Shown: in pieces, positions 17,402 to 38,151 of the stretch
How positions within the stretch are numbered: position 1 is the first letter of the stretch
Layout of the letters: each line of letters opens with the position of its first letter
Source of the DNA: an uncultured Porticoccus sp.
Lineage (GTDB): Bacteria; Pseudomonadota; Gammaproteobacteria; Pseudomonadales; Porticoccaceae
Length of the DNA stretch: 64,000 nt
Direction: 5' to 3'
Assembly: GCA_947259505.1 (NCBI GenBank)
Contig: CAMYLT010000002.1
Location: 328,598-392,597 of the forward strand
Position numbers and translations under genes: made by a program
Notes under the pieces: model-generated
Databases searched by the model: none
What the model was told of the DNA's origin: nothing
What the model saw: the letters and a program-made list of their open reading frames with translations, nothing else

Positions 17402-17475
17402 TTCTGACAAAATTGTGACACCCCCAAGTTACCCGAGCCTCACAGCATAAGCGAATCGGCGAGTATCACCCTATG

Positions 17476-24276: not shown

Positions 24277-24449
24277 TGTTTAGAACCTGGCTCGGTTTTC
24301 TGTCGGGCAACGATATCACACCATTCGCCTTGCACCGCAAGCGTCAGTTGGATAGATTGCAGCAACCGGGACTATACCCTAGGGCCATTATTCATTGCCA
24401 TACCAATGCCTCCCCCTTGCGTCCAAACAATTTCTTTCGAGACAAGCTG

Positions 24450-25559
24450 TTGAGTTCATTTCAAAGCACTCCAATCAGCCCCGCCACTAATACTCCCAGG
24501 GTATGGCTGATCAATGCCTATCGTGCCGGTGAACTGAGCCAGATGAGAGCCTTGGCCGATGCCTTAGGTTGGCCTTGGGAAGAAAAGGCGCTGACATACC
24601 GGAAATGGCGTTTCCGTACCAATCTGTTTCGCGGCAGCGACCTCAGTGGAATAGATCTGCCTCAGTCAGCACAGCTGGAAGCGCCCTGGCCTGACTTGAT
24701 TATTTCTGCGGGCATGCGCAATGAGCCCGTGTGCCGCTGGATCAGAAATCAATCTGGCGGAAAAACCCGTATCGTTCACCTCGGCCGACCTTGGGCCGAT
24801 CCGGAACAATTCGACCTGGTCATTACCACCCCCCAATACCGGCTGCCCCTGCGGCCCAATGTGTTGCAGAACACACTCCCTTTGCACAGCATCAACGGCC
24901 AGCTACTCCGCGACGCCAGAGAACAGTGGACCGAGCAGCTGAAAGACCTGCCAAAGCCCTTGATCGCCGTCATTGTTGGCGGCAACAGTGGACCATACAC
25001 CCTGGGGTTAAACGCGGCGCGACGGCTAGCTCGGCAGGCATGTGAACTGGCAAAAGCAAAGGGCGGTTCCCTACTGATCACCACCAGCGCCCGCACACAC
25101 CCCTCTGTAAGCCGCTACCTGAAATCCATTAGCGGTACACCAATGGCCTTTTACCAATGGAAGGCCAACGATAGCAACAACCCCTACCTCGGTTATCTGG
25201 CCATGGCGGATGAACTCATCGTCACAGCAGACAGCGTCTCCATGCTGTCTGAAGCCTGTGCCACAGGAAAACCTGTACACATGTTCGACTTGGGTATCGG
25301 CAAGTACAGCATGCGGGGCGATAGCGATAATTTTGAGGGGGACAATGACTTCTGTCTCCCAACACTGGCTTATCGAGCACTGATGCGCTGGGGATGGCAG
25401 CGGCTGAGCAGGGATATCACCCTGATACACCGACAGCTGGAGCAATCCGGGCGTGCCTGCTGGCTCGGGACGCCAACCCCGGAAACACCCAATAGAGATG
25501 ATAGTGACATGCAACAAGCTGTGAAATGGGTTCGGAAACTAATGGGCCTGGCTGGCTAG
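24450..25559 (+). CDS. ELM1-family protein (mitochondrial-fission-ELM1 / DUF1022 type, putative transferase), paralog 1
   Basis: RVWLINAYRAGELSQ, APWPDLIISAGMRNEPVCRWIRNQSGGKTRIVHLGRPW, FDLVITTPQY, VIVGGNSG. The start is uncertain: the ORF opens at a TTG at 24270 but would overlap the divergent ACP start, and TTG at 24450 gives a length like paralogs 2 and 3. Confidence 0.65.
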   Translation: MSSFQSTPISPATNTPRVWLINAYRAGELSQMRALADALGWPWEEKALTYRKWRFRTNLFRGSDLSGIDLPQSAQLEAPWPDLIISAGMRNEPVCRWIRNQSGGKTRIVHLGRPWADPEQFDLVITTPQYRLPLRPNVLQNTLPLHSINGQLLRDAREQWTEQLKDLPKPLIAVIVGGNSGPYTLGLNAARRLARQACELAKAKGGSLLITTSARTHPSVSRYLKSISGTPMAFYQWKANDSNNPYLGYLAMADELIVTADSVSMLSEACATGKPVHMFDLGIGKYSMRGDSDNFEGDNDFCLPTLAYRALMRWGWQRLSRDITLIHRQLEQSGRACWLGTPTPETPNRDDSDMQQAVKWVRKLMGLAG

Positions 25560-27266
25560 CTCTTCACGACTCACCAACGTAGCTCCCTCTCTGCCCAGCT
25601 CATAAATTCGATCTGCCGCATCCACGATCGCCGTGTCGTGTGAGACGGCCAGGATGGTCAGCTCCGATTTCAACTGCGCCATGGTTTCACAAACCTCTCG
25701 CTCACTGACCGGGTCCAAGGCACTGGTTGCCTCATCCAGGATCAACAGTTGAGGACGTTTTATCAACGCGCGGGCAATAGCAATACGCTGCCTCTGCCCT
25801 CCAGATAGCTTGCCGCCGCGCTCACCAACGACAGTGTGAATGCCGTTAGGAAAAGATGACACGAATCCCCAGGCACCTGCCTGTCGCAAAGCCCTTTCCG
25901 CATCTCCTTCGGTGAGTCCACTCTCCCCAAGGGTGACATTGTGGAGAACGGTATCATGTAGCAATACCGTTTCCTGTGGGACATAGCCAATGGACTGACG
26001 CCAGGCACGAATATCAAGCTTTCCAAGCGGCGTACCCGCCACCAGAATTTCACCGGACGTAGGTTTGAGCAGTGCAATGGTGAGGTCAATAATGGTGGTC
26101 TTGCCCACACCGGAGGGACCAATCAGTGCCGTTATACCGCCCACGGGTATTTCCAGAGATACATCACTGAAGACCTTATTGCCATCGTAGGCGAAACCCA
26201 CACTTCGAAATTCAATTGCATCGGTCAAGCAAGGCGCAACTCCTGCATCCAAGTGCTCTCTGGAGGCAGTCGCTTCATCAATCGATTTCTGGATAGACCA
26301 ATAGGCGCTCTCGCTCTGCACCATACTCTGGTACTGTTTCTGCACCTTCCCCACAAAGGAAAAAGACCGTCCCAACGTCACCACCAACACCATTACCGTA
26401 GCGAACTCCATGGCGTAGGTAACTAACGCCACATACATGCCCAACGCGATGAATACGGTGAACATCACTTCCTGCACAGAATTCAGCAAGGCCTTGCTGA
26501 AAACCTGTCGCCTGAGAGATTTATTGAGGCGCGAGGTCTCCATCGCCAAAACGGAATCGGCGAGGTGCTCACGCGCCATGGCCTTAAGGGGTTTCACCGA
26601 TTGCAAGGTATCAGTCAAACGTGACATCAGGGAACTCATCAGATGAGTCTGCTTTTTTCCGGCTTTTCGAGTAATCATTACCAAAAAGTGAGAAACCCCA
26701 ATAACCAGCAATCCTGCTCCAAGGCTGAGGAGCGCCGCCCGCCAGGAAACGGCAACGGCAACACAGCCGTAGATCAGCGCCTGGATTAAGAACGTAATGG
26801 CGGTAGCGCCACAGACAAATGAATCAGAAGATCGCTGTGCCTCGGTAGCCATGGCATTCGTTAATTGACCGATGGGTTTGTGCAGAAAGTATTCCCACTT
26901 ACTGCGCAGCATGGCGCGCAGCATTTCCAGTCGCAGATCAGTGCCAATCTGGGCCGCGGTGTACCCGACTTGGCGCTGAGCAACAAGCAGCAACAAACTC
27001 TTTAATGCCACCCCGATAACAACTATGACCAACAGAGGTCCGATAGTTGGCTCTATGCCGACATTGGCCAGAAATTCGACAACATACTGCTCGAAAGGGT
27101 TTTGCGACCCTAGATCATTTCCCGATCCGGATTTAATCGCTACGTTCAGCAACGGCAGCAACGCGGATAACCCCACCCCCTCAGCCAGGGCGGATAGAAA
27201 CAATGCCAGCAACATCAATAGCGTTTGCCATCGGTATTTTCTGAAGAAATTGAGCATTAAATGCAT
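25539..27266 (-). CDS. ABC exporter, fused TMD-NBD (MsbA-like lipid flippase type)
   Basis: Six-helix TM domain then NBD with GPSGVGKTT, LSGGQRQRIAIARA and LILDEATSALD. The start is ambiguous (27302 GTG, 27266 or 27257 ATG). Confidence 0.85.
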   Translation of the reverse strand: MHLMLNFFRKYRWQTLLMLLALFLSALAEGVGLSALLPLLNVAIKSGSGNDLGSQNPFEQYVVEFLANVGIEPTIGPLLVIVVIGVALKSLLLLVAQRQVGYTAAQIGTDLRLEMLRAMLRSKWEYFLHKPIGQLTNAMATEAQRSSDSFVCGATAITFLIQALIYGCVAVAVSWRAALLSLGAGLLVIGVSHFLVMITRKAGKKQTHLMSSLMSRLTDTLQSVKPLKAMAREHLADSVLAMETSRLNKSLRRQVFSKALLNSVQEVMFTVFIALGMYVALVTYAMEFATVMVLVVTLGRSFSFVGKVQKQYQSMVQSESAYWSIQKSIDEATASREHLDAGVAPCLTDAIEFRSVGFAYDGNKVFSDVSLEIPVGGITALIGPSGVGKTTIIDLTIALLKPTSGEILVAGTPLGKLDIRAWRQSIGYVPQETVLLHDTVLHNVTLGESGLTEGDAERALRQAGAWGFVSSFPNGIHTVVGERGGKLSGGQRQRIAIARALIKRPQLLILDEATSALDPVSEREVCETMAQLKSELTILAVSHDTAIVDAADRIYELGREGATLVSREELASQAH

Positions 27267-27681
27267 GTGTGGGTAATCTCTGGCCTTAAATCCTGACAGC
27301 ACATTCTAGGCTGACCGACGTTGCAAAATGATAACTTCCTAGACAACGAATGACGTCATCACCAACGCAGCGAGACTCTGCTGTTTCAGCAAAACGATCC
27401 CCCAACAGGGAGTAAAGCGGCCGTCATTTTAGCCCGAATGGATCACTGATGTTGATTCCAGGCAGAAAAAAGGCCGAACAACTTGTCATCTGCCTTTTAA
27501 CCTGCACCGCAAAGCAGGAAAACAACCCTATCTCCCAGTGTAAGGTTCATCACCCAATTCCCGATAGCCCGTGTCAAGGAGGGCCGTCAGCCACTCGCAA
27601 CCCTATCCCCCTCACTGGCCATTTTTGGGGCCTTACTGCATACTTCCGAGCCTTATTTATTAAACAGCGTAATGGTCAAAA

Positions 27682-28608
27682 ATGTTGCAATTGAGTGATG
27701 GGATAAAAAAAGCACTGGTAATTGCCCCCACGGAAATATTACCCAGCAAGTTGAGAGTATCCCTGCGCAAAAAACATCTCGGCCAGCTGGAACTCGCTCG
27801 TGCCCAGCGAGCCAATTTGCTCATTATCGGCCATCCAAAAAGCGGCAACACCTGGCTGAAAGTCATGATGTCCCGCCTCTATCAGGTTCGCTACGGCCTG
27901 CCCAGCTCCAAATTGATCAATACTGACGAGTTAGCCCGGAAACACCCCGGCATTCCTCGCCTGGCCGCCACCAACGGCTGCTACAGCTATGAACAGGTGG
28001 TCGGCAATCTGCTCACGCCCCAGGCCCATGACAACATCCTGAAGCGCAAGCCGGTGCTGTTCCTGGCGCGCCAGCCGATCGATATTGCCGTTTCCTGGTA
28101 CCACCAGTTCACCAAGCGCCAGTCCCGCGCCAAACAGGAGTTGATCAATCACTCTATTGATCATCCGATTGACCGCCACAGCATTGGCCTGTGGGATTTT
28201 GTGCGCCACAGTGATATCGGTTTACCGTTCCTGATCAACTACCTGAATACCTGGTATGACAATGTCCAGGCCCTCGACAGTGCCGCTATCATCCGCTACG
28301 AGGATCTCCGGGCTGAACCGGCAGAAACCCTGGCCAAGGTCTTCCAGCTAATGGGTGAAACCTTTACCGAACAAGAAATCGATGAAGCCGTAGCCTTCGG
28401 CTCGTTTGATAACCTACGTAAACTGGAAACAAGCGGCCACTTCCGGCAGGGCGGCATGCGCTTGCAAAACGCCAACGATCCCACCACCTTTAAAACGCGC
28501 AGAGGCAAGGTCGGCGGCTACAAGGACGACTTCAGCGAGGCACAGGTGGCCGAACTCGAACAGCTGGTACGCGACCACCTCAATCCGGCACTGGGCTATC
28601 GCCTGTAA
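27682..28608 (+). CDS. PAPS-dependent sulfotransferase 1
   Basis: 5'-PSB GHPKSGNTWLKVM, 3'-PB ARQPIDIAVSWY, C-terminal RRGKVGGYKDDF. Confidence 0.85.
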   Translation: MLQLSDGIKKALVIAPTEILPSKLRVSLRKKHLGQLELARAQRANLLIIGHPKSGNTWLKVMMSRLYQVRYGLPSSKLINTDELARKHPGIPRLAATNGCYSYEQVVGNLLTPQAHDNILKRKPVLFLARQPIDIAVSWYHQFTKRQSRAKQELINHSIDHPIDRHSIGLWDFVRHSDIGLPFLINYLNTWYDNVQALDSAAIIRYEDLRAEPAETLAKVFQLMGETFTEQEIDEAVAFGSFDNLRKLETSGHFRQGGMRLQNANDPTTFKTRRGKVGGYKDDFSEAQVAELEQLVRDHLNPALGYRL

Positions 28609-28634
28609 CAACACTTCACTCGAGCCAGACCACC

Positions 28635-29783
28635 ATGGACAAGCCAGCCGACGACCAACGTCCCGATCCTGTTCCCGTTATCTGGCTGATCCTCGGTGAC
28701 AAGCAGGGTGATAACAGCCAGGTAGAAACCCTGATCGAAGGGTTGGGCTGGCCGCACACCCGCAAATACGTGCACATGCGGGATGAATTCGTGCTCGGCA
28801 AACCGAAGTTCGGGGCCACCCTCGACCACCTGGATTTGAGCCACTCCGATGCCCTGGAAGCGCCTTGGCCGGATCTCATCTTCACCGTCGGTCGGCGACC
28901 CTCCATGGTGGCCCTGTGGGTGAGAGAGCAGTCCGGCAACCGCACCCGCATCATCCTGGTGGGCAAACCTACCGGCAACATGCCGGACTTCGACCTGGTC
29001 ATCGCCAGTAGCGAGAACCAACTGCCACCGCTGGACAACCTGGTCCCCATCACTCTGCCCATGATGCAGGTTGATCCCGCGAAGATTGCCGCAGAGGCGG
29101 AACGGTGGAACAGCAGGTTGGCAGCACTGCCGCGGCCACTGGTCGCCATTCTGGTGGGAGGCGAAACCGGGCCATTCGTCATGAATGAAGCCATCGCAGA
29201 CAAGCTGGCGGCTCAGGCCCGCCACATTCAGAACGACTTGGGTGGCACCGCCTATGTCACCACCAGCCGGCGCACCAAACCCGAAGTAGTGCAAGCGATC
29301 AAGCGTGCCCTGCCCCAGGAAACCCCTTTCTTCGCCTGGTCTGCCGATGCCGGGGACAATCCCTACAAAGCCCTGCTGGGTGCGGCGGATGGCTTTATCG
29401 TTACCGGCGACAGTATTTCGATGATGGTGGAGGTGATCCTCATGCGCAAACCGCTCGCCATCTTCCCCCTTTCCCAAGGCTTCGCGGGCACGGTGGATCA
29501 GCTGCGCCGCTCCCTGATCAGGCGACTGTTCAATCCCCGCTGTGAAACAACCCTGGATCGCTTACGCCAGCGTCTGGCGCGATTTATTTTCCGATTTGAT
29601 CGCTTCAAGCTGCTGAGTTCCACTCGGGACTTCAACTACTTTCACAGAATGCTGATCCAGCAGGGACTGGCGGTATGGGCCGGAGAGACTCTCAAGCCCC
29701 CCGTCAATTTCGCAGCAAACGATCTGGATAGGGTGGTAACCCGAATCAACGGACTGTTTGAACCGTCGACGAATGCCGACTGA
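28635..29783 (+). CDS. ELM1-family protein, paralog 2
   Basis: VIWLILGDKQGDNSQ, APWPDLIFTVGRRPSMVALWVREQSGNRTRIILVGKP, FDLVIAS, ILVGGETG. It is the divergent member of the three. Confidence 0.7.
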   Translation: MDKPADDQRPDPVPVIWLILGDKQGDNSQVETLIEGLGWPHTRKYVHMRDEFVLGKPKFGATLDHLDLSHSDALEAPWPDLIFTVGRRPSMVALWVREQSGNRTRIILVGKPTGNMPDFDLVIASSENQLPPLDNLVPITLPMMQVDPAKIAAEAERWNSRLAALPRPLVAILVGGETGPFVMNEAIADKLAAQARHIQNDLGGTAYVTTSRRTKPEVVQAIKRALPQETPFFAWSADAGDNPYKALLGAADGFIVTGDSISMMVEVILMRKPLAIFPLSQGFAGTVDQLRRSLIRRLFNPRCETTLDRLRQRLARFIFRFDRFKLLSSTRDFNYFHRMLIQQGLAVWAGETLKPPVNFAANDLDRVVTRINGLFEPSTNAD

Positions 29784-29823
29784 GATTCGCCAGGGTCACA
29801 CCCCGGCTGGCCAACTCAGCGCC

Positions 29824-30450
29824 TCAGCGCAACCCCAAGACATTTTTGACAAAGCGTGTGGATAAACGGCTCAGCCGTTGACTGGCCACCGACAAGGTGC
29901 TCTGGTCGAGGTAGTTGAGCTGTACCATGCGCCGCTCGCCCACAAAGCGGGTGTGGCCGTGCCAAGAGTGATCGGTGCGGCGAAACGCCAGCAAAGTACC
30001 ACCGATGGGTGCCACCTCGGCGGCGTAGTCTTCAATATCATTACCCGAGCGCAGCATTCGCAGACGACCCTCTGTGGCGGTCCAGTCGGCATTGAAATAC
30101 ACCAGCACGGTCAGCACCTTGCTCTTGTGGTCAGTGTGGATGTTACCGTCCGTGCGCTCGCAAAACTTGCGAACCGTCAGAGTCGTCGGCAGATTGACGA
30201 GGTCCATGTCAAATTTCTCTGCCATCACTTCAGCCAGCTTGCGGCTTCTCATCTCTGCCACAAAGCGGGCGAAGCCGGGGCCGTAGCTGAGAGACTCCAG
30301 ATCGTGATTGGCCGCCGTGTCGATAGCGGGATAATCGGCATTGACCTGCGCCAGGCCGTCGCTGTCAATAAAATTGGGTACGACCAGGAAATCGAAGGGA
30401 TCCCGTTGCAGTTGGCTCTGTTGCACTGATTCGATATTGAGCAGGGGCAC
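29824..30450 (-). CDS. 2OG-Fe(II) oxygenase superfamily protein
   Basis: HxD facial triad in GNIHTDHKS and a distal His in DHSWHGH, with a beta-rich pattern between them. Confidence 0.65.
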   Translation of the reverse strand: MPLLNIESVQQSQLQRDPFDFLVVPNFIDSDGLAQVNADYPAIDTAANHDLESLSYGPGFARFVAEMRSRKLAEVMAEKFDMDLVNLPTTLTVRKFCERTDGNIHTDHKSKVLTVLVYFNADWTATEGRLRMLRSGNDIEDYAAEVAPIGGTLLAFRRTDHSWHGHTRFVGERRMVQLNYLDQSTLSVASQRLSRLSTRFVKNVLGLR

Positions 30451-30919
30451 AGTTGTTCTCTAAGGAATAATGACGACACTGGCGGGCATTCTAAATGCCC
30501 GCCCTCAAGTGCCGCAAGGCAGCTGCAACTCAGTCACAGCAACACTTGATACAGATCATAAACTGAACCCTGCTCAGCTGGCTTCAGACAGGTCTTCAAC
30601 AAAACAGATAGCTGACTACCCAATATTTGCAGCCACGTTTGCCCCTATATAATGAAGGGTACCATTGGAAATGGGACGCTACTGCCGAAACGGATCACAA
30701 TGGCAGATGCTTCAACAAGGATGGCTTAACCTCTCACCATGATATTTCTAATCTTTTACAACGGAGAGACAGGCTTAACGTGGATGATTTCCCGGGTAGT
30801 CATTTTAAAATGACTTAGTCTTATAGCATGGGGCGGACCTTGAAATCACTAAGATTTACAAGCCATACCTCAAAGAGGCTATTATTTCCGAGTATGCCTG
30901 GGGGAAAGCCGGTTCAACC

Positions 30920-31888
30920 CTACAATCCACCGCCATGATCGGACCCAAGCAATTTATCGACGATATCCACAACATATTGCCTATTTCGCTCAAATACTCC
31001 CTGCACATCATCTTCCTTCCTCAAAGGAAAACAGCGAACGTGAAAGCCAAATGGCTTCCCTTTCCAAAAAAACTTCTCCCAATTTTTAAGCCCATCAGAT
31101 TCCCAGCCAAACTTATTAAAATCAGAATCGAAAAAATATCCCTTCTTTTTAGGAATAAAACTCATATTATCTGGATAAAATAAATCTTTTACCTTTTCAA
31201 GAAAACTTGGATTGAAAGCCGGATTAAGGCACTCAACCTTTATTTTTGAGGCATCGAAATAAAGGTCAAATATTCTCCAACCAGTATCTCTAGACGTCCC
31301 AATTTTTTTTCTTTTCTCTAAGAAAATTTTAGCCTTAACTTTCTGCGCTATTGATTTCTTCGATGGTTTTTGATTAACCCAAGATGCATTGCTGTCATAA
31401 TCCGGAGTAAAATCTAGCGTTTCCAACGAGACCTTACTCAGATCGAAAAACACGCAGTGTGCGCACGGAAAATAACGAATTTTTCTGGAACGAGAAGGAT
31501 GCCAAGGAACACCCAATATAGAGACATCATTTTGCTCCATATAATTAATTATCTCGTTTACCCAGTTAGGTTTAATAATGTAAAAATCCGGATCTAAAAC
31601 CAACAAAAATCTGGATCTCACTTTCTTCAATGTTAATTGAAGCCCTGCTGCATGGTGATAGCTAGCTTCAGCATACGGTCTATTTACTGGTGGAGCACCG
31701 CCAAGCAATGAAACATTACGAACTTTTGGTTGTAATTTTTCAGTGGAGTTTTCTGGTGAATTTTCAGCAACAATCCATTCAATATTACACGAGGGGTTTA
31801 ATGCTCCTGCCAATTGAATATTAAGATCAAGCCAGGGGCCAGAATTAAATGATACTGAACAAACAGTTAGATCTTGCTGACCAAGCAT
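30920..31888 (-). CDS. Putative GT-A fold glycosyltransferase (GT2-like), AT-rich
   Basis: LTVCSVSFNSGPWL start, WIVAENSP, and the DxD-like LLVLDPDFYI. Sampled 60-nt lines are 23-33% G+C. Confidence 0.45.
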   Translation of the reverse strand: MLGQQDLTVCSVSFNSGPWLDLNIQLAGALNPSCNIEWIVAENSPENSTEKLQPKVRNVSLLGGAPPVNRPYAEASYHHAAGLQLTLKKVRSRFLLVLDPDFYIIKPNWVNEIINYMEQNDVSILGVPWHPSRSRKIRYFPCAHCVFFDLSKVSLETLDFTPDYDSNASWVNQKPSKKSIAQKVKAKIFLEKRKKIGTSRDTGWRIFDLYFDASKIKVECLNPAFNPSFLEKVKDLFYPDNMSFIPKKKGYFFDSDFNKFGWESDGLKNWEKFFWKGKPFGFHVRCFPLRKEDDVQGVFERNRQYVVDIVDKLLGSDHGGGL

Positions 31889-32101
31889 ACCTTCTCCAAT
31901 TCTTCTAACCCCAATTTATCTTTGATGAAACATCACACTACCGGCGATAAGACAATAGCCACCGGTGGCGGCCGCCAGCATTACATGATTAGCGATATTT
32001 CTCTTGTGCAAATAAGCTACTAATCATCGATTCACCAACATCAATAGAAGCCAAAAAATGTTAGACGTCACTCTCGCTTATCACACTTACAAATAAATAG
32101 T

Positions 32102-32896
32102 TCAATCCGCTCTGGTAAGATTTATTATGAGCGATCTGCGCATATTATCGGGGTTAGCCCCAACCATAGGCCGAACCGAGTGCCAAGAGTTAAATGTTTT
32201 GACAAAAATAACCCCCTGATTTGGCTCGAACTCAAAGGTGTCAACAACATCCATTTCTTCAAATGAAGCTTGCCTGTTCAACCAGTTAAAGTCCTTAGTT
32301 ATATCTTTAGGCTGATTAACATCGGTCCCGCCACCCACAGTCTTATCCCAAGCTTCTGTCATTGAGACAACAATTGTGACAAATTTTGAAGCCGTATCCG
32401 TATGCGGAAAAATATGCCCTCCTGTCTCGGGCATCATCTGAAACTCAAATCTTGCGTTCAGACGAGCACCTCGCTTGGGTGGCTGTCTTTTAATAATACT
32501 TTTCAGATTCTTGTAGAAATATTTCCATTTATTGGCAGGACGCCTGTACCCCAAATCGATACCATGCTCAAACAAAACATCCATTACTGAATAAATAAAA
32601 TCCTCACTTTTTATCCATTTATAGAATGTTTTCCAAACAGGACTGTTTTTTATGAAAGCGTGATACTGTTTTGCATGAAACTTTTCAGAAAGTGCGTACT
32701 TGTTACCGAGACGAGGCATATACAAAAACAAGTCCGTTTGAGGCCAATCTCTCACCATGTCTTTATATACAGAGCTTTCGATAAGATTTTTTGCCACACC
32801 AATCGGATAAGGCCTATACCTGAGCTTTAGGTTACTAAAATTGAAACAACCTTTCACAGGACTTCCTTCCATCTTAAACCTTCCTTTTGCTAACAC
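32102..32896 (-). CDS. Hypothetical protein, 2OG-Fe(II) oxygenase-like, AT-rich
   Basis: GGHIFPHTDT (HxD) and FNSWHSVRP in the same order and spacing logic as the 29824..30450 product. Start may be the internal Met (MEGSPV). Confidence 0.4.
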   Translation of the reverse strand: MLAKGRFKMEGSPVKGCFNFSNLKLRYRPYPIGVAKNLIESSVYKDMVRDWPQTDLFLYMPRLGNKYALSEKFHAKQYHAFIKNSPVWKTFYKWIKSEDFIYSVMDVLFEHGIDLGYRRPANKWKYFYKNLKSIIKRQPPKRGARLNARFEFQMMPETGGHIFPHTDTASKFVTIVVSMTEAWDKTVGGGTDVNQPKDITKDFNWLNRQASFEEMDVVDTFEFEPNQGVIFVKTFNSWHSVRPMVGANPDNMRRSLIINLTRAD

Positions 32897-32928
32897 CCAA
32901 GTTAACCAAAAATTGCACTCACACTCTA

Positions 32929-33684
32929 TTACACTGAACTAACATCCTTAAAAAGGGTGCTTTTAATTCCTTTTCTAAACAACTTCTTAAACAGTTTCCT
33001 ACGATCCGCAAGGACAAAAATGCTTTTTTCCTCTGCACAGAGCACCCAACGGATACCCGGATTTCGTTTGGCAGCCAGTTCCAATTGCCCTTTCCACCAC
33101 TTCGGCGGACGAATCGTACAGTGAGCATTGGTACCGTCAGGCAGCAGCTTTGCCGCCGGATAACAGGCCGCAACAATATAGACAAACTGATTCGCACGAC
33201 TAAACAGATCGTCCAGAAACCAGCTGACATCCTGCTCAGGAATGTGCTCTATGACATCCGTACTGATGACGCCATCGAAACACCCCTCCACTTCACCAGA
33301 AAAGGGCTCGTAGCCTGGGTCATAACAGGTGACAACCACCCCCCCCCACTCCGGCAATGACTTATAACGGGAATCGGTCGGGTATCCTGGCGCGGCGCTG
33401 TATAACCCTCCCTTCCCTGCACCAAAATCGAGAACCGTCTTTGCGCAGGTCTCATCGATCAATGTTGCAATCAATGGAATATGTTTTTCGAGAGAGCCGC
33501 CCCTGAAGGTCTTCTCCGGCCGGCTGGTATCGTCCGGACTGTCGTCCTTATGCATTTTGTCCGGCCTGCCATCCTTGTGCATACTCCCGTACATTTCGAG
33601 CAATTCCTGGTAACGGGGACTTGGAGAATTCTTGGTATAAATCTCCGAATCATTACTGATCGTTCGCGCTTCTACTTCTGTCAT
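32929..33684 (-). CDS. Class I SAM-dependent methyltransferase
   Basis: Motif I VLDFGAGKGG and post-I/II blocks (FDGVISTDVIEHI). It contains a G9 run on the coding strand. Confidence 0.7.
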   Translation of the reverse strand: MTEVEARTISNDSEIYTKNSPSPRYQELLEMYGSMHKDGRPDKMHKDDSPDDTSRPEKTFRGGSLEKHIPLIATLIDETCAKTVLDFGAGKGGLYSAAPGYPTDSRYKSLPEWGGVVVTCYDPGYEPFSGEVEGCFDGVISTDVIEHIPEQDVSWFLDDLFSRANQFVYIVAACYPAAKLLPDGTNAHCTIRPPKWWKGQLELAAKRNPGIRWVLCAEEKSIFVLADRRKLFKKLFRKGIKSTLFKDVSSV

Positions 33685-33959
33685 AACAGCCTACAAACAA
33701 TTATGTTTTGGTCATTCCGTTCACAAAAATCCGTAAACGCCCCGTTTACCAACCTAGCCACTTCCACCCAGAAGCTAGAGCTTTTTATGTTACCACCCAG
33801 AGACTCCAAACGTGCATACCGGGACTCAAATCCGCTATGATAAGCGTCGTTCTGCGCCAACGCCGGAGAGTGCGTTCATCGATGCGCGAAACGACACGAC
33901 ATGCCCTCCACAGGTTATGTTTTAATTGATCTCGGCGCTCTTCGGACATCGTCAACAGC

Positions 33960-34961
33960 ATGAAAGATATGATGCAAGTGGTGTCTCGCCACATCCTTTT
34001 GGCCGTTCTCGGCTTCCTGCCACGGGAGCGCAAAAAACGCCTTGAGCGCTGGTTGCGGGGGCGAGAAGAATACAGCCGCCTGCAGCGGGCCGACTGGGTG
34101 CTGATGTCCTGGGGCAAGAGTGGTCGCACCTGGTTGCGGGTTATGCTGAGCCGCTTCTACCACAACAAATTTGCCATTCCGGGTGACGAGCTGCTGGATT
34201 TCGACAACCTGAAGAAAGCGAACCCCGCGGCCCCCAGCGTATTTTTCACCCACAACAATTACCTGCGCAACTACACCGGCAACTGGCACTCCAAAGCCCA
34301 CTTTGACGGCAAACCCATCGTGCTGTTGGTTCGCGACCCACGAGATGTGGCGGTATCCCAGTTTTTCCAATGGCAGTACCGCATGCGCCCCAACAAGAAA
34401 TTCATCAATGACTACCCGCCCCACGGCGTCGAGATCACCCCCTTCCAGTTCGTGATGGATGTTCAGGCAGGGCTGCCCCGCGTCATTGACTATTTCAACG
34501 GCTGGGTAGAGACCCTGAACGCGCGGAACGATGTGATGATGGTTCGCTACGAAGACATGCGGACCGAACCCGAGCGTGAACTGTCCCGGATCATCGCCTT
34601 CACCGGCACACCGGGCACAGAAGATGAAGTGCGCGACGCGGTGGACTTTGCCGCCTACGACAACATGAAAAAACTCGAGGAAAGCCGCTTCTTCAAGGGC
34701 AGCGGTGCCCGGGTCAAGCCCGGCGACAGCGCGAATCCGCAGTCCTTCAAGGTACGGCGCGCCAAAGTGGGCGGCTACCGGGATTACTTCAGCGACGAGG
34801 AATGCGCGCAGCTCGACACCCTGATGGAAACCCTGCACCCGGTATTCGGTTACGGCCTGTCCAGCAGTATTACCACAGAGATAAGCGAGAGCACCGATAC
34901 TTCCGAAAACGACAATGGGCATGATCTAGCCAAACAAAACACAGGCACCCCCACAGCATGA
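33960..34961 (+). CDS. PAPS-dependent sulfotransferase 2
   Basis: SWGKSGRTWLRVM, LLVRDPRDVAVSQF, RRAKVGGYRDYF. Confidence 0.85.
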   Translation: MKDMMQVVSRHILLAVLGFLPRERKKRLERWLRGREEYSRLQRADWVLMSWGKSGRTWLRVMLSRFYHNKFAIPGDELLDFDNLKKANPAAPSVFFTHNNYLRNYTGNWHSKAHFDGKPIVLLVRDPRDVAVSQFFQWQYRMRPNKKFINDYPPHGVEITPFQFVMDVQAGLPRVIDYFNGWVETLNARNDVMMVRYEDMRTEPERELSRIIAFTGTPGTEDEVRDAVDFAAYDNMKKLEESRFFKGSGARVKPGDSANPQSFKVRRAKVGGYRDYFSDEECAQLDTLMETLHPVFGYGLSSSITTEISESTDTSENDNGHDLAKQNTGTPTA

Positions 34962-35914
34962 ACATGATGATCAATGAGTTTCTGCAAGCACGGCGGATTT
35001 TGTGGAAAAAACTGTCGCGCCGCCTTCTTCACTTACGGATGATACGTAGTGACGAAGCCGAGCGACTGCGCGCCGAGCGGGTGCTGCGCGGCAAGGAGCA
35101 GAACAATACCCTGCAGAAAGCGGATTTCGTGGTGGTCTCCTTCGGTAAAAGCGGCCGCACCTGGCTGCGGGTGATGATGTCCCAGGCACTGCGTCTGCAC
35201 TGGAATATTCCGGGCCATGCCATGCTGGGTTTCGACAACTTCCACAACATGAACCGGCAGGTACCGAAGATCTTCTTCACTCACGACAACTACATCAAGG
35301 ACTACGCCGGCCAGCCGGATTCCAAGTCGCCGTTCTACGGCAAGAAGGTGATCCTGCTGGCACGTGACCCGCGCGACACCTCGGTTTCCAATTACTTCCA
35401 GTGGAAGTTCCGCATGAAACCGAACAAGAAAAAGATCAACAACTATCCCGCTGAAAACTCGGATATCGGCGTGTTCGACTATATGACCAGCCAGCACGGT
35501 GGCAGCCTCGCGGATGTGATCGGCTTTCTGAACATCTGGGCCAAAGAGGCCGACAAAATCACCGATTTCCATCTGGTGCGTTACGAAGATCTGCGCCGCG
35601 ACACCGCAACCGCGCTGCGCGAACTGCTCGACTTTATGGCGATCCCGGTGAGCGACAAACATCTCGCAGCAGCCGTGGAGTTCAGCTCATACGAGAACAT
35701 GAAGAAAATGGAAGAGCGCAATGCCTCTTCGCCCAGCGGTCGGCTGGCGCCGAAGGACAAGGACAATCCGAACAGCTACAAGGTGCGCCGCGCCAAGGTA
35801 GGCGGTTACCGGGATTACCTGGAGGACGATCAGGTAGAGCAGGTGGACAAACTGGTAGTGTCGACACTGGACCCGATGTACCAGTACACCGGGCCCACGT
35901 CAAAACAGGATTAA
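34958..35914 (+). CDS. PAPS-dependent sulfotransferase 3
   Basis: SFGKSGRTWLRVM, LLARDPRDTSVSNY, RRAKVGGYRDYL. ATGA start/stop overlap with sulfotransferase 2. Confidence 0.85.
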   Translation: MNMMINEFLQARRILWKKLSRRLLHLRMIRSDEAERLRAERVLRGKEQNNTLQKADFVVVSFGKSGRTWLRVMMSQALRLHWNIPGHAMLGFDNFHNMNRQVPKIFFTHDNYIKDYAGQPDSKSPFYGKKVILLARDPRDTSVSNYFQWKFRMKPNKKKINNYPAENSDIGVFDYMTSQHGGSLADVIGFLNIWAKEADKITDFHLVRYEDLRRDTATALRELLDFMAIPVSDKHLAAAVEFSSYENMKKMEERNASSPSGRLAPKDKDNPNSYKVRRAKVGGYRDYLEDDQVEQVDKLVVSTLDPMYQYTGPTSKQD

Positions 35915-35937: not shown

Positions 35938-36876
35938 TCAGGATGCAGCCGCCATCTTGGGCGCATCCTTGCCGATGCGCCAACGTTCTACTACTTCGAA
36001 TGCATCACTACGCAAGTGCCCCTGACGCATTTCATCGCGCAGTTGCTGTTCGGTGATGATTCCCTTCTCAAGACATTCACCAACCAGGCTGAAAAAGAAC
36101 CGCTCCTGATTCGGATCGGGATGCTCTTTGTAGCGACCGGCCAAACCATAATCACCAAACAGCGCCCTGCGGGCACGGCGCAACCAGTGCTTTGGCGGGA
36201 ACAGCTGGAACGTATCCGCCGCACGGAAATCCACCTTGAGGCCCGTCTTCCAGGGCTGAGTTTTGCGTTTGGTGTTGTGTAGCATGTGGGTCGCCGGGGT
36301 CAGGCGGTCAAAATCATTCCACTCATTTTCAAACAGGCCGATGGTATCCGGGTCCTCCAGCTTGAGGGATACCCAGTCCATGTAGTCGCGCTGTCCGGTG
36401 AACATCTCGTTGACATTCTCTTCCAGGCGCCAGTGGGTCAGTTTGGCGCAGTCCAGTAACATCACGCTGGAGGCCATGGCACCCCGGCGTCCTTTGTTGC
36501 CGGATTTGGGTCGACACATCAGCGCCGCTCCCTCCATATCCCGGGACAACAAATCCCATACATCACCTACGGCAAACACATCGGGATCGACCACCAACGC
36601 CCGGCCCGTGTAATTCATCAGTTGGGGGGGCGCGAACCGCAGCGGGGTGAACGACTGAAGATCATCATTCAACCAGGCGCGCATTTCGCCATCGCGCAGG
36701 TAGCGCTGCCCTTCACGCTCCTGCAAACAGGGGAAGTCCCGGTTGTGCATGAAGCGCACTTCGAACTTGTCGTTATGGCTGGAGTTGCGGCGGAACGCGT
36801 ATTCGCTGATCAATGCGCCGAGCCATTGCTTATGGTTGGCTTGAATAAAAACGCAGTAGTCCAAGGATGACCTCAC
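35938..36876 (-). CDS. GT8-like nucleotide-sugar transferase, paralog A
   Basis: DxD in ALVVDPDVFA and the GT8-type HxxGxxKPW-like motif LHNTKRKTQPWKTG. Paralogous to 38211..39158. GTG or TTG start. Confidence 0.5.
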   Translation of the reverse strand: MRSSLDYCVFIQANHKQWLGALISEYAFRRNSSHNDKFEVRFMHNRDFPCLQEREGQRYLRDGEMRAWLNDDLQSFTPLRFAPPQLMNYTGRALVVDPDVFAVGDVWDLLSRDMEGAALMCRPKSGNKGRRGAMASSVMLLDCAKLTHWRLEENVNEMFTGQRDYMDWVSLKLEDPDTIGLFENEWNDFDRLTPATHMLHNTKRKTQPWKTGLKVDFRAADTFQLFPPKHWLRRARRALFGDYGLAGRYKEHPDPNQERFFFSLVGECLEKGIITEQQLRDEMRQGHLRSDAFEVVERWRIGKDAPKMAAAS

Positions 36877-37065
36877 AATCGTCTAGAAGTGAAACAAACT
36901 CTATCGCCTGAGTGGTCGAATCCTAGCAGCTTGAAACGGCCAGATCACTCACCCAGATCAAATAATCGGCACTTTCCCCAGCCCGCAAATATCGCCATTC
37001 AAGCAGAATTGGTGGAATACCCCGAATTGGGTAAACTGCCTGTCTCGATCAGTATCGGTCTCCCC

Positions 37066-38151
37066 ATGACGCAATCAGAGCAAACAGCAACTCCACGAGT
37101 CTGGCTCTTATTCGGCCAAAAAGCCGGTGACAATAATCAGGCGCTGGCCCTGGCGGAACAACTGGGCTGGCCTTACACCATCAAGACCATCCACCATCAG
37201 CCCTGGGAACTAGTTACCAATCTGCTGCTGGGGCCCAACTTGAAAGGCGTCAAACTAAGGACTTCCAGTGAACTGGAAGCTCCCTGGCCAGACTTGATCA
37301 TCTCTGCCGGGCGTCGCAATGAGCCTGTGGCACGCTGGATTCGGCACCAATCAAGCGGCCAATCCCGCCTTGTCCATATCGGTCGCCCCTGGGCACCACT
37401 GGCCAGTTGGGACCTGATTGTTACCACGCCGCAATATTTCCTGCCCGCAGCCGACAACGTGCTGCTCAACCGTCTGCCCCTGCATCGGATCACCCCCGAG
37501 CGCCTGGCACTTGAGGCCACTACTGAATCACCCTGGCACAACCTGCCTCGGCCCTATACGGCAGTACTGCTGGGCGGTGACAGCGGACAGTTTGTCTTCA
37601 CGGCAGAGAAAGGACAACGGATGGGCTTGCTGGCGAACACACTGGTAAAAAGAATGGGCGGATCGGTGCTTATTTCCGATAGCCGGCGCACCCCGGCCGC
37701 CGCCAGCGAAGCCTTCTGGAAACAGCTATCTGTACCCGCCTGGCGCCATAACTGGCACGATGGCCAGAACAGCAACCCCTATATGGCCCTTCTCGCCCAA
37801 GCAGACCAGCTGGTGGTCACAGGGGAAAGCATGTCCATGCTCACTGAAGCCACCGCCACCGGCAAACCGCTGTTTATCTTCGACATGTCTGACCGGGACA
37901 GCCGCTGGTGGCGGCAATGCCACAATTACCGTCACAAACCCCTCAGCCATCGGCTCGCCATGGCACTGGGGCCGCGACGCATGCGCAGGGATATCGCCAG
38001 GATACAGGAAGCGTTGGTAGCGGATGGTCGGGCCGTCTGGCTCGATGACGAAAGCATCGGTCAGGGTGAATTATTTTCCGGGAAGAATGTTGCCCCGCGC
38101 GAGGCGGAGTGCCGGACCGCGGCACAGCGCATCAGAGATATGTTTGGCTAA
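37066..38151 (+). CDS. ELM1-family protein, paralog 3
   Basis: RVWLLFGQKAGDNNQ, APWPDLIISAGRRNEPVARWIRHQSSGQSRLVHIGRPW, WDLIVTTPQY, VLLGGDSG. ATG at 37066; the ORF-track GTG at 36889 adds a non-homologous leader. Confidence 0.7.
   Translation: MTQSEQTATPRVWLLFGQKAGDNNQALALAEQLGWPYTIKTIHHQPWELVTNLLLGPNLKGVKLRTSSELEAPWPDLIISAGRRNEPVARWIRHQSSGQSRLVHIGRPWAPLASWDLIVTTPQYFLPAADNVLLNRLPLHRITPERLALEATTESPWHNLPRPYTAVLLGGDSGQFVFTAEKGQRMGLLANTLVKRMGGSVLISDSRRTPAAASEAFWKQLSVPAWRHNWHDGQNSNPYMALLAQADQLVVTGESMSMLTEATATGKPLFIFDMSDRDSRWWRQCHNYRHKPLSHRLAMALGPRRMRRDIARIQEALVADGRAVWLDDESIGQGELFSGKNVAPREAECRTAAQRIRDMFG

Follow-up and report, generated by a model that had tools for sequence, protein, structure and literature searches.

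Three sulfotransferase-fold proteins in a ceramide locus of an uncultured Porticoccus species and their possible role in head-group sulfation

The nearest solved relatives of the three sulfotransferases (ST1, ST2, and ST3) encoded by a marine, uncultured Porticoccus species are plant and human cytosolic SULTs. SULT1E1 is inactivated by mutation of His108, and glutamate acts as the base in several sulfotransferase families, for example heparan sulfate NST, 3-OST, and TPST. Among bacteria, LPS sulfation is known in rhizobia and sulfated polysaccharides are common in marine species; we found no literature precedent for a bacterial sulfated glycosphingolipid pathway of the kind considered here. 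The window, a stretch of 64,000 nucleotides, carries the ST genes among genes of ceramide synthesis (Table 1). On the basis of gene content and sequence relationships, we consider it somewhat probable that sulfate is added in the cytoplasm, before export, to the glycan head group of a lipid anchored by ceramide.

Table 1. Features of the locus, in window coordinates
Feature	Coordinates	Strand	Assignment
LpxL-like acyltransferase	14727-15659	-	Below NCBIfam equivalog cutoffs
Fatty-acid hydroxylase	15687-16322	-	Pfam
CerR-like SDR	16475-17410	-	Pfam
Fatty acyl-AMP ligase	17476-19254	-	NCBIfam PRK09192, 780 bits (cutoff 600)
bCerS-like GNAT	19720-20931	+	Pfam
CpgD-like NTP transferase	20945-21760	+	Pfam
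Serine palmitoyltransferase (Spt)	22788 to about 23987	-	NCBIfam NF047599 equivalog
ACP	24037-24276	-	ACP models
ELM1a	24270..25559	+	First ELM1-family protein, between ACP and ABC exporter; Pfam E 9e-63; real start probably near 24450
ABC exporter, MsbA/HepA-like	25539..27302	-	Pfam ABC_membrane and ABC_tran
ST1	27682..28608	+	Sulfotransfer_1 protein, 308 aa
ELM1b	28635..29783	+	ELM1-family (PF06258) GT-B-fold transferase, immediately 3' of ST1; Pfam E 2.2e-52
2OGa, 2OG-Fe(II) oxygenase	29824..30450	-	Pfam 2OG-FeII_Oxy_3, E 1.8e-7; conserved cassette member
Strain-variable segment	30920..33684	-	Low GC (0.44); outside conserved module
Weak GT2 match	30920-31888	-	In strain-variable segment
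2OGb, second 2OG-like gene	32102-32896	-	In strain-variable segment
Methyltransferase-like ORF	32929-33684	-	In strain-variable segment
ST2	33960..34961	+	Sulfotransfer_1 protein, 333 aa; canonical catalytic His98; PAPS motifs complete
ST3	34958..35914	+	Sulfotransfer_1 protein, 318 aa; canonical His109; start overlaps ST2 stop
unk312	35938..36876	-	GT8-like GT-A-fold protein (predicted); invariant DPD motif
ELM1c	36889..38151	+	Third ELM1-family GT-B protein; Pfam E 3.3e-61; real start probably near 37030
unk326	38211..39191	-	GT8-like GT-A-fold protein (predicted); most conserved gene of the module
Tam41-like protein	39441-40370	-	Nucleotidyltransferase fold; always adjoins DAGK_cat gene
DAGK_cat lipid kinase	40382-41416	-	CpgB/ceramide-kinase-like; Pfam DAGK_cat, E 9e-13

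Family, motifs, and paralogy of the sulfotransferases

The three open reading frames that a sequence-only reading had proposed as sulfotransferases are present, and each product exceeds the gathering score of Pfam Sulfotransfer_1 (PF00685; 22 bits), with 77.7 bits for ST1 (E 1.3e-21), 79.3 bits for ST2 (E 3.9e-22), and 85.6 bits for ST3 (E 4.6e-24). Three matches of this strength in 8 kb go far beyond what chance would give. The signature blocks named in that reading occur in all three proteins: the 5'-PSB loop is HPKSGNTW in ST1, WGKSGRTW in ST2, and FGKSGRTW in ST3; the 3'-PB block is RQPIDIAVS, RDPRDVAVS, and RDPRDTSVS, respectively; and the C-terminal block is RRGKVGGYKD in ST1 and RRAKVGGYRD in both ST2 and ST3. 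A single letter needs correction, as the serine said to open the third loop is the residue preceding its phenylalanine. Across 152 sequences, the PSB-loop lysine, the 3'-PB arginine and serine, and the RRxKVGGY block are conserved at about 100%. That ST1 to ST3 are all sulfotransferase-fold proteins with intact PAPS-binding motifs is supported at the sequence level.

The best PDB match of ST1 is the plant SOT 1q44 (phmmer, E 2.4e-14) and that of ST3 is plant SOT16 8k9y (E 1.3e-10), with human SULT2A1 next; the likeness to SULT2 lies only at the level of fold and motif, at about 20–25% identity. Relatives of the STs are named "alcohol sulfotransferase" by JGI. No TM-like segment was detected in the STs, the ELM1 proteins, or the GT8-like proteins. 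The STs would be soluble, cytoplasmic enzymes of the cytosolic SULT type that use PAPS, and we hold this reading as a whole, head-group sulfation of a ceramide glycolipid included, with moderate confidence. Neither a Pfam search of the approximately 55 window ORFs nor a six-frame motif search detected ATP sulfurylase, APS kinase, or CysQ, in agreement with the earlier remark that the window has no PAPS-synthesis genes; the donor must come from outside it, as that remark had also concluded.

Identity ranges from 57% to 66% within the ST orthogroups and from 31% to 46% between them, and each of the three is separately under purifying selection. ST2 and ST3 are 46% identical and belong to different orthogroups, whose conservation extends across classes, and the duplication that produced them is thus ancient; their description as a tandem duplication is apt in this sense, but not as a recent event. 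The ATGA overlap reported for the pair is in the DNA (ATG at 34958-60, TGA at 34959-61), overlaps of 4 nt (ATGA or GTGA) persist in 26 of 27 related loci, and the two genes are probably translationally coupled. The ELM1 paralog that had been noticed 26 nt after ST1 is likewise there (ELM1b). The proposal of several sulfation steps or acceptor positions is consistent with three separately conserved orthogroups.

The catalytic position of ST1

The catalytic histidine is invariant in orthologs of ST2 (100%, n=57) and ST3 (100%, n=36), both of which would follow the standard His-base mechanism. In ST1, Asn98 occupies the expected position in 62 of 62 orthologs, within an invariant TNGxYSYE motif ending at E104 (N98, Y101, S102, Y103, and E104 all at 100%). 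An independent BLASTP alignment, which pairs T97-N98 of ST1 with T97-H98 of ST2, confirms the change from His to Asn. Since every ST1 ortholog has Asn for the catalytic His, a standard O-sulfotransferase role should not be assumed for this protein. In the reading that we favor, ST1 would employ another base, for which Glu104 is a candidate given that Glu-base families exist, or would take a different type of acceptor.

It is also conceivable, although in our view unlikely, that ST1 is not a conventional O-sulfotransferase at all, serving instead as a non-catalytic PAPS/PAP-binding partner of ELM1b or performing other chemistry (e.g., N-sulfation or an acidic acceptor). Apart from the substitution itself, this is suggested by the wider subfamily, where His is present in roughly three of every four representatives at 50% identity and Asn is almost confined to those nearest ST1, and by the constant adjacency of ELM1b (the two are neighbors in 47 loci). 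However, ST1 keeps all of its PAPS-binding motifs and has 69 invariant residues, among which Y101, S102, Y103, and E104 lie beside the active-site strand. The question bears on ST1 alone and does not conflict with cytoplasmic head-group sulfation, standard His-base sulfation then being left to ST2 and ST3.

The ceramide locus and the fixed module

Spt scores 598 bits against the NF047599 cutoff of 500, and with the ACP, acyl-AMP ligase, CerR-like, bCerS-like, and DAGK-type genes it bears out the earlier placement of the STs inside a lipid island, here a complete ceramide locus around the ST module; the bCerS-like and ceramide-kinase-like names apply at the family level only. A PP-binding gene occupies the place of the ACP in loci L001–L003. 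Tam41_Mmp37 is the sole family matched by the Tam41-like proteins (7 of 11 members, best E 3.5e-5), with a faint match in L085. The ABC exporter reaches 294 bits for HepA (cutoff 725) and 250 bits for MsbA (cutoff 602), so that it is not a canonical MsbA; with the LpxL-like protein also under its equivalog cutoff, both are dedicated paralogs. The exporter, co-located in 26 of 44 loci, is a putative flippase for the finished lipid.

The fixed module around the STs consists of three ELM1-family GT-B proteins, two unannotated GT8-like GT-A proteins, and one 2OG oxygenase. No characterized bacterial member of the ELM1 family was found. The AF2 model of ELM1b (pLDDT 88) matches the GT-B glycosyltransferases YjiC, EarP, MGD1, MurG, and TarL in Foldseek (E about 3e-7); the position of ELM1a is matched in L001–L003 and that of ELM1c is conserved in related loci. 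unk326 retains 53–83% identity across loci, and its 5782 homologs are all "hypothetical" and lack a Pfam domain. For its AF2 model (pLDDT 80, pTM 0.83), the Foldseek matches are GlyE, LARGE1, WbbM, LgtC, and glycogenin at probability 1.0 (E about 3e-8), and the GT-A and GT-B folds of the partner proteins are predicted at moderate TM-scores (0.35–0.5). unk312 matched none of the Pfam families scanned; it is 61% identical to unk326, whose model suggests the same fold for it. 2OGa is found in 37 of 44 fully flanked loci and is missing from the ST-less locus L085. Within the strain-variable segment, the GT2 and 2OGb genes are essentially missing from other loci (one 2OGb-like match, in L022); of the three ORFs, the 99% relative L003 has just the methyltransferase-like one, and similarity to L003 is lost from about 30560.

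Conservation across genomes and the probable acceptor

The order ST1-ST2-ST3 is shared by at least 80 species genomes, most of them from Halieaceae and Porticoccaceae and others from Thiohalobacter, Roseovarius, and further MAGs. Cultured carriers include Halioglobus japonicus, Chromatocurvus halotolerans DSM 23344, Mangrovimicrobium sediminis, and Thiohalobacter thiocyanaticus. Distant relatives preserve the arrangement ST1-ELM1b-2OG-ST2-ST3-GT8-ELM1c-GT8 between Spt/ACP/ELM1a/ABC and the DAGK gene, and in L017 a FAAL-CerR-LpxL-like group is joined directly to ST1. Locus L085, without STs and 2OG, retains ELM1, GT8, DAGK, Lpt, ABC, and ACP genes, so the STs and 2OG look like an addition to a glycosyl-sphingolipid pathway. 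In some relatives, LptF/G genes lie within the locus or Wzy_C (WaaL-like) genes and an extra ST lie beside it; neighbors of the LpxL-like, LptF/G, and Wzy_C kinds are just as typical for LPS loci. Of the 44 fully flanked loci, 32 have one or more ceramide-pathway genes within 10 kb and 12 have none, a count that covers the 10-kb neighborhoods. These 12 carry a compact cassette (LpxL-like, ST1, ELM1b, 2OG, ST2, GT8-like) flanked by unrelated or general envelope genes, and a lipid acceptor is therefore something that we infer.

Those 12 loci make decoration of the LPS core the main rival, whereby the STs, ELM1, GT8-like, and 2OG proteins put sugars and sulfate on the lipid A inner-core region and cluster with sphingolipid genes merely as outer-membrane lipid genes. 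A Lip_A_acyltrans gene (E 1.6e-43) often comes before the ceramide-free cassette, LptF/G, Wzy_C, and MsbA-like genes occur in or beside the locus, the NCBI name for the ELM1 family derives from GtrOC1, which we take to be a gene of the Acinetobacter LOS outer-core locus, and rhizobial LPS sulfation offers a precedent. We nevertheless judge this rather unlikely: in loci from Roseovarius, Thiohalobacter, and Chromatiales the ST genes are intermingled with DAGK (ceramide-kinase-like), Tam41-like, bCerS-like, and NTP-transferase genes, the exporter and acyltransferase fall short of the MsbA and LpxL equivalog cutoffs, Pfam detected no Kdo, heptose, or lpx core genes in the window, and the LpxL-like proteins linked to the cassette are related over their full length (35–39% identity) to the copy in the window's ceramide operon.

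Sulfate could instead be placed on the lipid moiety, at hydroxyls of the long-chain base or of a hydroxy fatty acid made by the fatty-acid hydroxylase or 2OG, to give ceramide sulfates rather than sulfated sugars. The hydrophobic alcohols accepted by SULT2A1-type hydroxysteroid/alcohol SULTs and plant SOTs, the JGI label, the presence of both hydroxylating enzymes in the island, and the co-travel of 2OG with the STs would fit, but the similarity to SULT2 is distant, ceramide has few free hydroxyls to offer three enzymes, and sulfation of bare ceramide would not call for the strict co-inheritance of the STs with ELM1b and a GT8-like gene, which holds down to the minimal cassette; we regard this as improbable. 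With five GT-fold proteins and a 2OG in a fixed module, a sugar or hydroxylated head group of a glycosyl-ceramide is a likelier acceptor than bare ceramide. A secreted or capsular polysaccharide or O-antigen is a very improbable substrate despite the five GT-fold proteins, the commonness of sulfated polysaccharides in marine bacteria, and the flanking Wzy_C and extra ST genes of some relatives, as the module has no Wzx, Wza, Wzc, initiating phosphoglycosyl transferase, or polysaccharide ABC-2 exporter, is tightly interleaved with lipid enzyme genes, and in its minimal form has just two GTs and an acyltransferase.

Therefore, we hypothesize that the locus assembles the head group of a ceramide-anchored glycolipid step by step, with the STs as the decoration layer, and the use of PAPS, acceptor, step order, topology, and destination given here are those that we infer. 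Spt and its ACP, together with the acyl-AMP ligase, CerR-like reductase, and bCerS-like GNAT, would make ceramide, which the DAGK-type kinase and its Tam41-like neighbor would probably phosphorylate and activate. The three ELM1-type GT-B and two GT8-like GT-A transferases would extend the head group, with possible hydroxylation by the 2OG oxygenase, before ST1, ST2, and ST3 sulfate up to three distinct positions at the inner face of the cytoplasmic membrane. The polyanionic product would then be flipped by the MsbA/HepA-like exporter on its way to the outer membrane. If this is true, the product would be a sulfated glycosphingolipid of a kind so far undescribed from bacteria, yet apparently common among marine Gammaproteobacteria.

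Sulfotransferase family and its three orthogroups

The three open reading frames that the sequence-only reading had picked out as PAPS-type sulfotransferases (ST1, ST2 and ST3) are present exactly where it placed them, and all three match Sulfotransfer_1 far above the Pfam gathering threshold of 22 bits. The motif blocks it quoted are all found, apart from a small slip in the ST3 loop, where the sequence is FGKSGRTW. The DNA confirms that ST2 and ST3 overlap by ATGA, and the gene 26 nt downstream of ST1 does belong to the ELM1 family (PF06258, E 2.2e-52). Across an alignment of 152 homologs from 80 genome loci, the PAPS-binding residues are essentially invariant in the ST1, ST2 and ST3 groups alike: the 5'-phosphosulfate-binding (PSB) loop reads PKSGNTW or GKSGRTW, with K, S, G, T and W conserved in 98–100% of sequences, R, P, D, V and S of the 3'-phosphate-binding (3'PB) motif R..P.D..VS are conserved in 100%, and the C-terminal block RRxKVGGY(R/K)D is conserved at about 95–100% in all three groups. 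The catalytic His that precedes the 3'PB motif is H98 in ST2 and H109 in ST3, and each is found in 100% of orthologs. In sequence, ST2 and ST3 carry every hallmark of the SULT-like family, whereas ST1 lacks the catalytic His. The closest solved structures by sequence in the PDB are plant SOT12/16/18 and human SULT1A1 and SULT2A1 (E 1e-8 to 2e-14); Teg12 and StaL are far weaker matches than these cytosolic SULTs, and structures of the Stf0, NodH or related types are not among the matches. An exact-sequence look-up of ST3 returned nothing on record, and neither the STs nor the ELM1 proteins are covered by an NCBIfam model. A 335-aa open reading frame antisense to ST2 (33915-34922, minus strand) with high first-position GC was rejected as a codon-bias artefact of the coding strand.

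The sulfate donor would come from elsewhere, as had been noted from the sequence. Neither Pfam searches covering almost all ORFs of the window nor a six-frame motif search revealed an ATP sulfurylase, an APS kinase or a PAP phosphatase, and the PAPS donor pathway is therefore encoded outside the window.

The homologs split into three orthogroups, with a mean identity of 0.57–0.66 within groups, 0.31–0.33 between ST1 and ST2 or ST3, and 0.46 between ST2 and ST3. ST1, ST2 and ST3 are thus ancient paralogs, each retained separately in Gamma- and Alphaproteobacteria. The proposal that ST2 and ST3 arose by a recent tandem duplication is ruled out by these identity levels and by the separate orthogroups; they are paralogs, but old ones. 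A 4-nt overlap of the two genes, either ATGA or GTGA, persists in 26 of 27 loci.

ST1 is peculiar in that Asn occupies the catalytic-His position in 62 of 62 orthologs, a column that is supported by an independent BLASTP alignment. The residue lies in an invariant T-N98-G-x-Y-S-Y-E104 motif with a five-residue insert (YSYE), and 69 residues of ST1 are invariant. To place this motif in the wider subfamily, 1.84 billion 50%-identity representatives were searched exhaustively; of the full-length sequences within the top 150 matches, roughly three quarters carry His at the catalytic position, and the TNGxYSYE form is limited to the clusters nearest ST1. ST1 is strongly constrained yet cannot use the textbook His base, because Asn replaces it in every ortholog, and Glu104 would be the obvious candidate for a replacement base. 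It is possible, though rather unlikely, that ST1 is non-canonical or non-catalytic, and this holds independently of how the rest of the module is read.

The ceramide island and its partner proteins

The island spans approximately 14.7–42.9 kb of the window. It runs, in order, through an LpxL-like acyltransferase, a fatty-acid hydroxylase, a CerR-like SDR and a fatty acyl-AMP ligase; a GNAT-like (bCerS-like) protein, a CpgD-like NTP transferase and a metallophosphoesterase; serine palmitoyltransferase (Spt) and ACP; ELM1a, an ABC exporter, ST1, ELM1b and a 2OG oxygenase, followed by a low-GC insert; ST2, ST3, unk312, ELM1c and unk326; and a Tam41-like protein (unk309), a DAGK-type kinase and a probable secreted protein. 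Each of the five kinds of gene that bacteria need for making ceramide appears to be present, so the lipid island of the earlier interpretation is real; that interpretation is on the whole partly supported and sharpened. The names CerR-like and bCerS-like denote family-level matches.

Features of the island, with positions in the window and family evidence
Feature	Position	Strand	Assignment and evidence
CerR-like SDR	16475-17410		Epimerase family match
Fatty acyl-AMP ligase			PRK09192, 780 bits vs cutoff 600
bCerS-like protein			403 aa; weak GNAT match, E 4e-6; kept beside NTP transferase
CpgD-like NTP transferase			NTP_transf_3, E 8e-13; family level only
Spt			NCBIfam equivalog NF047599, 598 bits vs cutoff 500
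ACP	24037-24276		ACP models; adjoins Spt
ELM1a	24270-25559	+	PF06258
ST1	27682-28608	+	Sulfotransfer_1 (Pfam), 77.7 bits, E 1.3e-21
ELM1b	28635-29783	+	PF06258
2OG oxygenase	29824-30450	-	
ST2	33960-34961	+	Sulfotransfer_1 (Pfam), 79.3 bits, E 3.9e-22
ST3	34958-35914	+	Sulfotransfer_1 (Pfam), 85.6 bits, E 4.6e-24
unk312	35938-36876	-	GT8-like, predicted GT-A fold
ELM1c	36889-38151	+	PF06258
unk326	38211-39191	-	GT8-like, predicted GT-A fold
unk309	39441-40370	-	Tam41-like, 309 aa
DAGK-type kinase (CpgB-like)	40382-41416	-	DAGK_cat, E 9e-13; family level only
Probable secreted protein	41499-42851	-	

Because the ABC exporter and the LpxL-like acyltransferase score well under the NCBIfam equivalog cutoffs (MsbA 250 vs 602 and HepA 294 vs 725 for the exporter; 166 vs 273 with the best LpxL model for the acyltransferase), they are dedicated paralogs and not the housekeeping lipid A enzymes. 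The STs, ELM1s and GT8-like proteins contain no TM-like segments. Hydrophobic segments are also lacking in these proteins and in the 2OG oxygenase, the DAGK-type kinase, the bCerS-like protein and the unassigned ORFs checked, the sole exception being a doubtful N-terminal extension of the ORF at the island end (41499-42851). The longest form of this ORF encodes 450 aa and is probably too long, as relatives measure about 250–310 aa; a stretch resembling a signal peptide, MLRSLLQVGLLALALTQGAVG, comes after an internal Met. Its product is a conserved, probably exported protein outside the known families.

The low-GC (0.44) segment at approximately 30560-33900, between the 2OG oxygenase and ST2, contains a weak GT2 match, a second 2OG-like gene and a methyltransferase-like ORF, and only the last of these is present in a 99%-identical relative (L003). 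The segment is a strain-variable insertion that may alter the head group. Downstream of the island lie signalling genes (43512-48476: PAS-GGDEF, NOV_C-domain and MASE2 adenylate/guanylate cyclase) and, at 52013-54468, a second class I/II aminotransferase and an NAD-kinase/DAGK_cat-like protein. A scan of 27.2–38.3 kb was uninformative, with fewer promoter-like sites than expected from shuffled sequence and terminator-like sites only modestly over that expectation.

The STs are embedded among five GT-fold proteins and one 2OG oxygenase. Two of the former, unk312 and unk326, are 61% identical paralogs from a family that comprises at least 5782 clusters (90% identity), all annotated as hypothetical and without a Pfam domain, and the GT8-like gene is the most conserved of the island (identity between genera reaches 83%). 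Modelled with AlphaFold2, unk326 (pLDDT 80, pTM 0.83) matches GlyE, LARGE1, WbbM, LgtC and glycogenin in Foldseek with probability 1.0 and E ~3e-8, at moderate TM-scores of 0.35–0.5. The family is predicted to adopt a GT8-type retaining GT-A glycosyltransferase fold, in agreement with its invariant DPD motif; no Glyco_transf_8 or other Pfam match and no PDB match by sequence profile was obtained for unk312 or unk326. The ELM1b model (pLDDT 88) resembles YjiC, EarP, the galactolipid synthase MGD1, MurG and TarL, again with moderate TM-scores, and is best described as a predicted generic GT-B fold of nucleotide-sugar or CDP-alcohol transferases. Both folds are read from predicted models and not from sequence profiles, as profile searches of the PDB with the GT8-like, ELM1 and unk309 families gave chance-level matches only.

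The unk309 gene, found also at L085:7672-8607 in a related locus, always adjoins the ceramide-kinase-like gene and encodes a nucleotidyltransferase-type motif (YGSxxR...D). The only Pfam family matched by its relatives is Tam41_Mmp37 (7 of 11, best E 3.5e-5; E 0.019 for the window copy), the mitochondrial CDP-diacylglycerol synthase family. It could be a ceramide-1-phosphate cytidylyltransferase that makes CDP-ceramide, and is perhaps the counterpart of the domain-less Caulobacter CpgC.

Locus types and the probable product

ST relatives amount to over 5000 clusters (90% identity), most of them in Halieaceae (Haliea, Halioglobus and Chromatocurvus) and Porticoccaceae, and each component family has thousands of metagenome homologs. 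The closest genome is a Porticoccus sp. MAG with an ST1 that is 95% identical. At least 80 species-level genomes keep the gene order, and three distant relatives with called genes share the order of the window. Cultured carriers include Halioglobus japonicus, Halioglobus sp. Uisw_031, Chromatocurvus halotolerans DSM 23344, Haliea sp. E17, Mangrovimicrobium sediminis, Thiohalobacter thiocyanaticus Hrh1 and Roseovarius autotrophicus SHN287. These comparisons are made at the level of loci; the genes there were called by a codon-position GC score, and both the calls and the counts of genes per locus are approximate.

The unit ST1-ELM1b-2OG-ST2-ST3-GT8-ELM1c-GT8 co-travels across the 80 genome loci in three contexts. 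In Cellvibrionales-type loci, it stands between Spt/ACP/ELM1a/ABC and the DAGK gene. The second context, seen in Roseovarius autotrophicus, Thiohalobacter thiocyanaticus and a Chromatiales MAG, has DAGK, Tam41-like, bCerS-like and NTP-transferase genes interspersed with the STs. The third context is a minimal cassette, (LpxL-like)-ST1-ELM1b-2OG-ST2(±ST3)-GT8-like, found in alpha, gamma, Myxococcota and Spirochaetales MAGs with flanks of unrelated or general envelope genes. The LpxL-like proteins linked to such cassettes are full-length and 35–39% identical to the LpxL-like protein of the window's ceramide operon, and in one locus (L017) FAAL-CerR-LpxL-like is directly joined to ST1. A further relative, L085 (ENA ERZ28763718, a 5.3-Mb contig), carries DAGK, Tam41-like, Wzy_C and GT8-like genes, three ELM1s, LptF/G, an ABC exporter and ACP, but neither an ST nor a 2OG oxygenase lies within 21 kb. 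Since these glycosyl and lipid genes occur there without either, L085 points to a glycosyl part that is proper to the sphingolipid pathway and to the STs and the 2OG oxygenase as an added decoration layer.

On balance, we think it probable that the island makes a sulfated, glycosylated, ceramide-anchored outer-membrane lipid. Once ceramide is made, the DAGK-type kinase would probably phosphorylate it, and the Tam41-like protein might activate it (a speculative step). The ELM1 and GT8-like enzymes would then add sugars, and the 2OG oxygenase might hydroxylate the product. ST1–3 would next sulfate up to three positions with cytoplasmic PAPS, and the dedicated exporter would flip the product for delivery to the outer membrane. 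The family, the motifs, the gene linkage and the predicted folds are what the data show, and from these the use of PAPS, the acceptor and the topology are inferred. Among the 44 loci with full 10-kb flanks, Spt lies within 10 kb in 26 and at least one ceramide-pathway gene in 32. The main rival, that the module decorates the LPS core, draws support from the other 12 loci (OZ252006 and L059 among them), in which no ceramide-pathway gene is found within 10 kb, and from the LpxL-like, Lpt and WaaL-like neighbours; we nevertheless consider it unlikely. Direct sulfation of ceramide hydroxyls is less likely than the LPS core and appears improbable, and sulfation of a polysaccharide, also less likely than the LPS core, still more so.

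Several genes accompany the related loci. LptF/LptG lie between the MsbA/HepA-like exporter and ST1 or ELM1 genes (L001:3971-6165, L002:3660-5798 and L085:13307-15444), are inserted between exporter and ST1 in two of the three distant relatives, and are absent from the corresponding place in the window. Their position inside these loci is a hint that the Lpt bridge takes over the product. A Wzy_C (O-antigen ligase/WaaL-like) gene stands at the edge of or inside several related loci (L001:19601-20779, L084:1761-3101 and L085:8589-9806), and in L001 and L084 another sulfotransferase comes after it; the lipid may thus have a polymer ligated to it. In 24 Halieaceae-type loci, a MurA-like gene (UDP-GlcNAc enolpyruvyl transferase), identified by reading the sequence and not by a family search, lies between the metallophosphoesterase and Spt (e.g., L019:2015-3268, minus strand). 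It is missing from the window and could be a housekeeping murA or a head-group enzyme.

Relation to known systems and significance

The STs share with cytosolic SULTs the fold family (by HMM), the PSB loop, the 3'PB motif, an RKGxxGxW-type C-terminal block, solubility and a length of about 300 aa, and ST2 and ST3 also share the catalytic His. However, they are bacterial and only about 20–25% identical, ST1 has Asn in place of the catalytic His together with the YSYE insert, and they are embedded in a lipid/glycan assembly operon, whereas cytosolic SULTs act on small soluble molecules. The closest functional analogue of the proposed module is the mammalian cerebroside sulfotransferase Gal3ST1, which makes sulfatide by PAPS-dependent O-sulfation of the sugar on glycosyl-ceramide, to our knowledge the only widely known pathway that yields sulfated glycosphingolipids. 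Gal3ST1 belongs to the unrelated Gal-3-O-sulfotransferase family and is a Golgi type II membrane protein that adds one sulfate on the lumenal side, whereas the window enzymes are SULT-type, three in number and presumably cytoplasmic.

Functional precedents for bacterial glycolipid sulfation exist in the PAPS-dependent enzymes Stf0 of mycobacteria (trehalose, for SL-1) and NodH (Nod factor) and LpsS (LPS) of rhizobia, which act on a glycolipid precursor, a lipo-oligosaccharide and LPS. They differ in family, acceptor and taxon, their anchors being acyl-trehalose, a chitin oligomer and lipid A, and none is known to be linked to Spt. The sphingomonad glycosphingolipids GSL-1 to GSL-4, which substitute for LPS, are likewise acidic, ceramide-anchored glycolipids of a Gram-negative outer membrane. 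However, they belong to Alphaproteobacteria and take their charge from uronic acids, an ST/ELM1/GT8-like module is unreported for them, and we know of no sulfate on them.

Closest in biological logic is the CPG/CPG2 system of Caulobacter crescentus, in which CpgA–D lie beside spt, acp, cerR, acps and bcerS and the anionic sphingolipid sustains the outer membrane upon lipid A loss (PMC9393093, PMC12275187). CpgA has a PgsA domain and CpgC no domain, and sulfotransferase, ELM1 and GT8-like genes are unmentioned there (PMC9393093, PMC12275187). Caulobacter CpgA and CpgC were rejected as ELM1 proteins on these domain assignments. In both systems, a ceramide core locus is joined to head-group genes for what is in Caulobacter, and would be here, a strongly anionic sphingolipid, and both include, in the window at family level only, a DAGK/LCB5-type kinase (CpgB-like) and an NTP transferase/cytidylyltransferase type (CpgD-like). 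Unlike Caulobacter, the window offers no PgsA/CDP-alcohol phosphatidyltransferase domain of the CpgA type in any island ORF scanned with Pfam, and the charge, phosphoglycerate in CPG, would here come from sulfate esters on the glycan. In the searchable literature, bacterial sphingolipids are nowhere linked to sulfotransferases or ELM1 proteins, and the Caulobacter CPG papers were the sole relevant match.

A bolder reading joins these points into a ceramide-anchored, sulfate-charged analogue of lipopolysaccharide, and we offer it tentatively, as it is unlikely to hold in all of its parts together. The product would be an oligoglycosyl (phospho)ceramide with up to three sulfate esters, acylated further by LpxL-like enzymes, moved by its own MsbA/HepA-like exporter and by Lpt to the outer membrane, and extended in some lineages by a WaaL-like ligase. 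Its users would be abundant marine Gammaproteobacteria (Halieaceae/OM60-NOR5 and Porticoccaceae), in which sulfate might replace phosphate-based outer-membrane charge in phosphorus-poor, sulfate-rich seawater, and ST1 would represent a new mechanistic SULT subclass without the catalytic His.

The STs are new members of a known enzyme family; what sets their module apart is its coupling to bacterial sphingolipid synthesis. O-sulfated sphingolipids occur in animals as sulfatide, and we know of none in bacteria, the searchable literature included; the known sulfur-containing, sphingolipid-like lipids of bacteria are sulfonolipids, whose biosynthesis follows another route. The module is widespread, not a curiosity of a single genome, and some of its carriers are in culture. 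If the proposal is true, marine bacteria of ecological importance would possess an anionic outer-membrane lipid of a new class, and both the bacterial ELM1 family and a large GT8-like family that lacks annotation would gain a function. It would also broaden the result from Caulobacter that the role of lipid A can be shared by anionic sphingolipids, and would provide a concrete case of sulfur-for-phosphorus substitution in the cell envelope.
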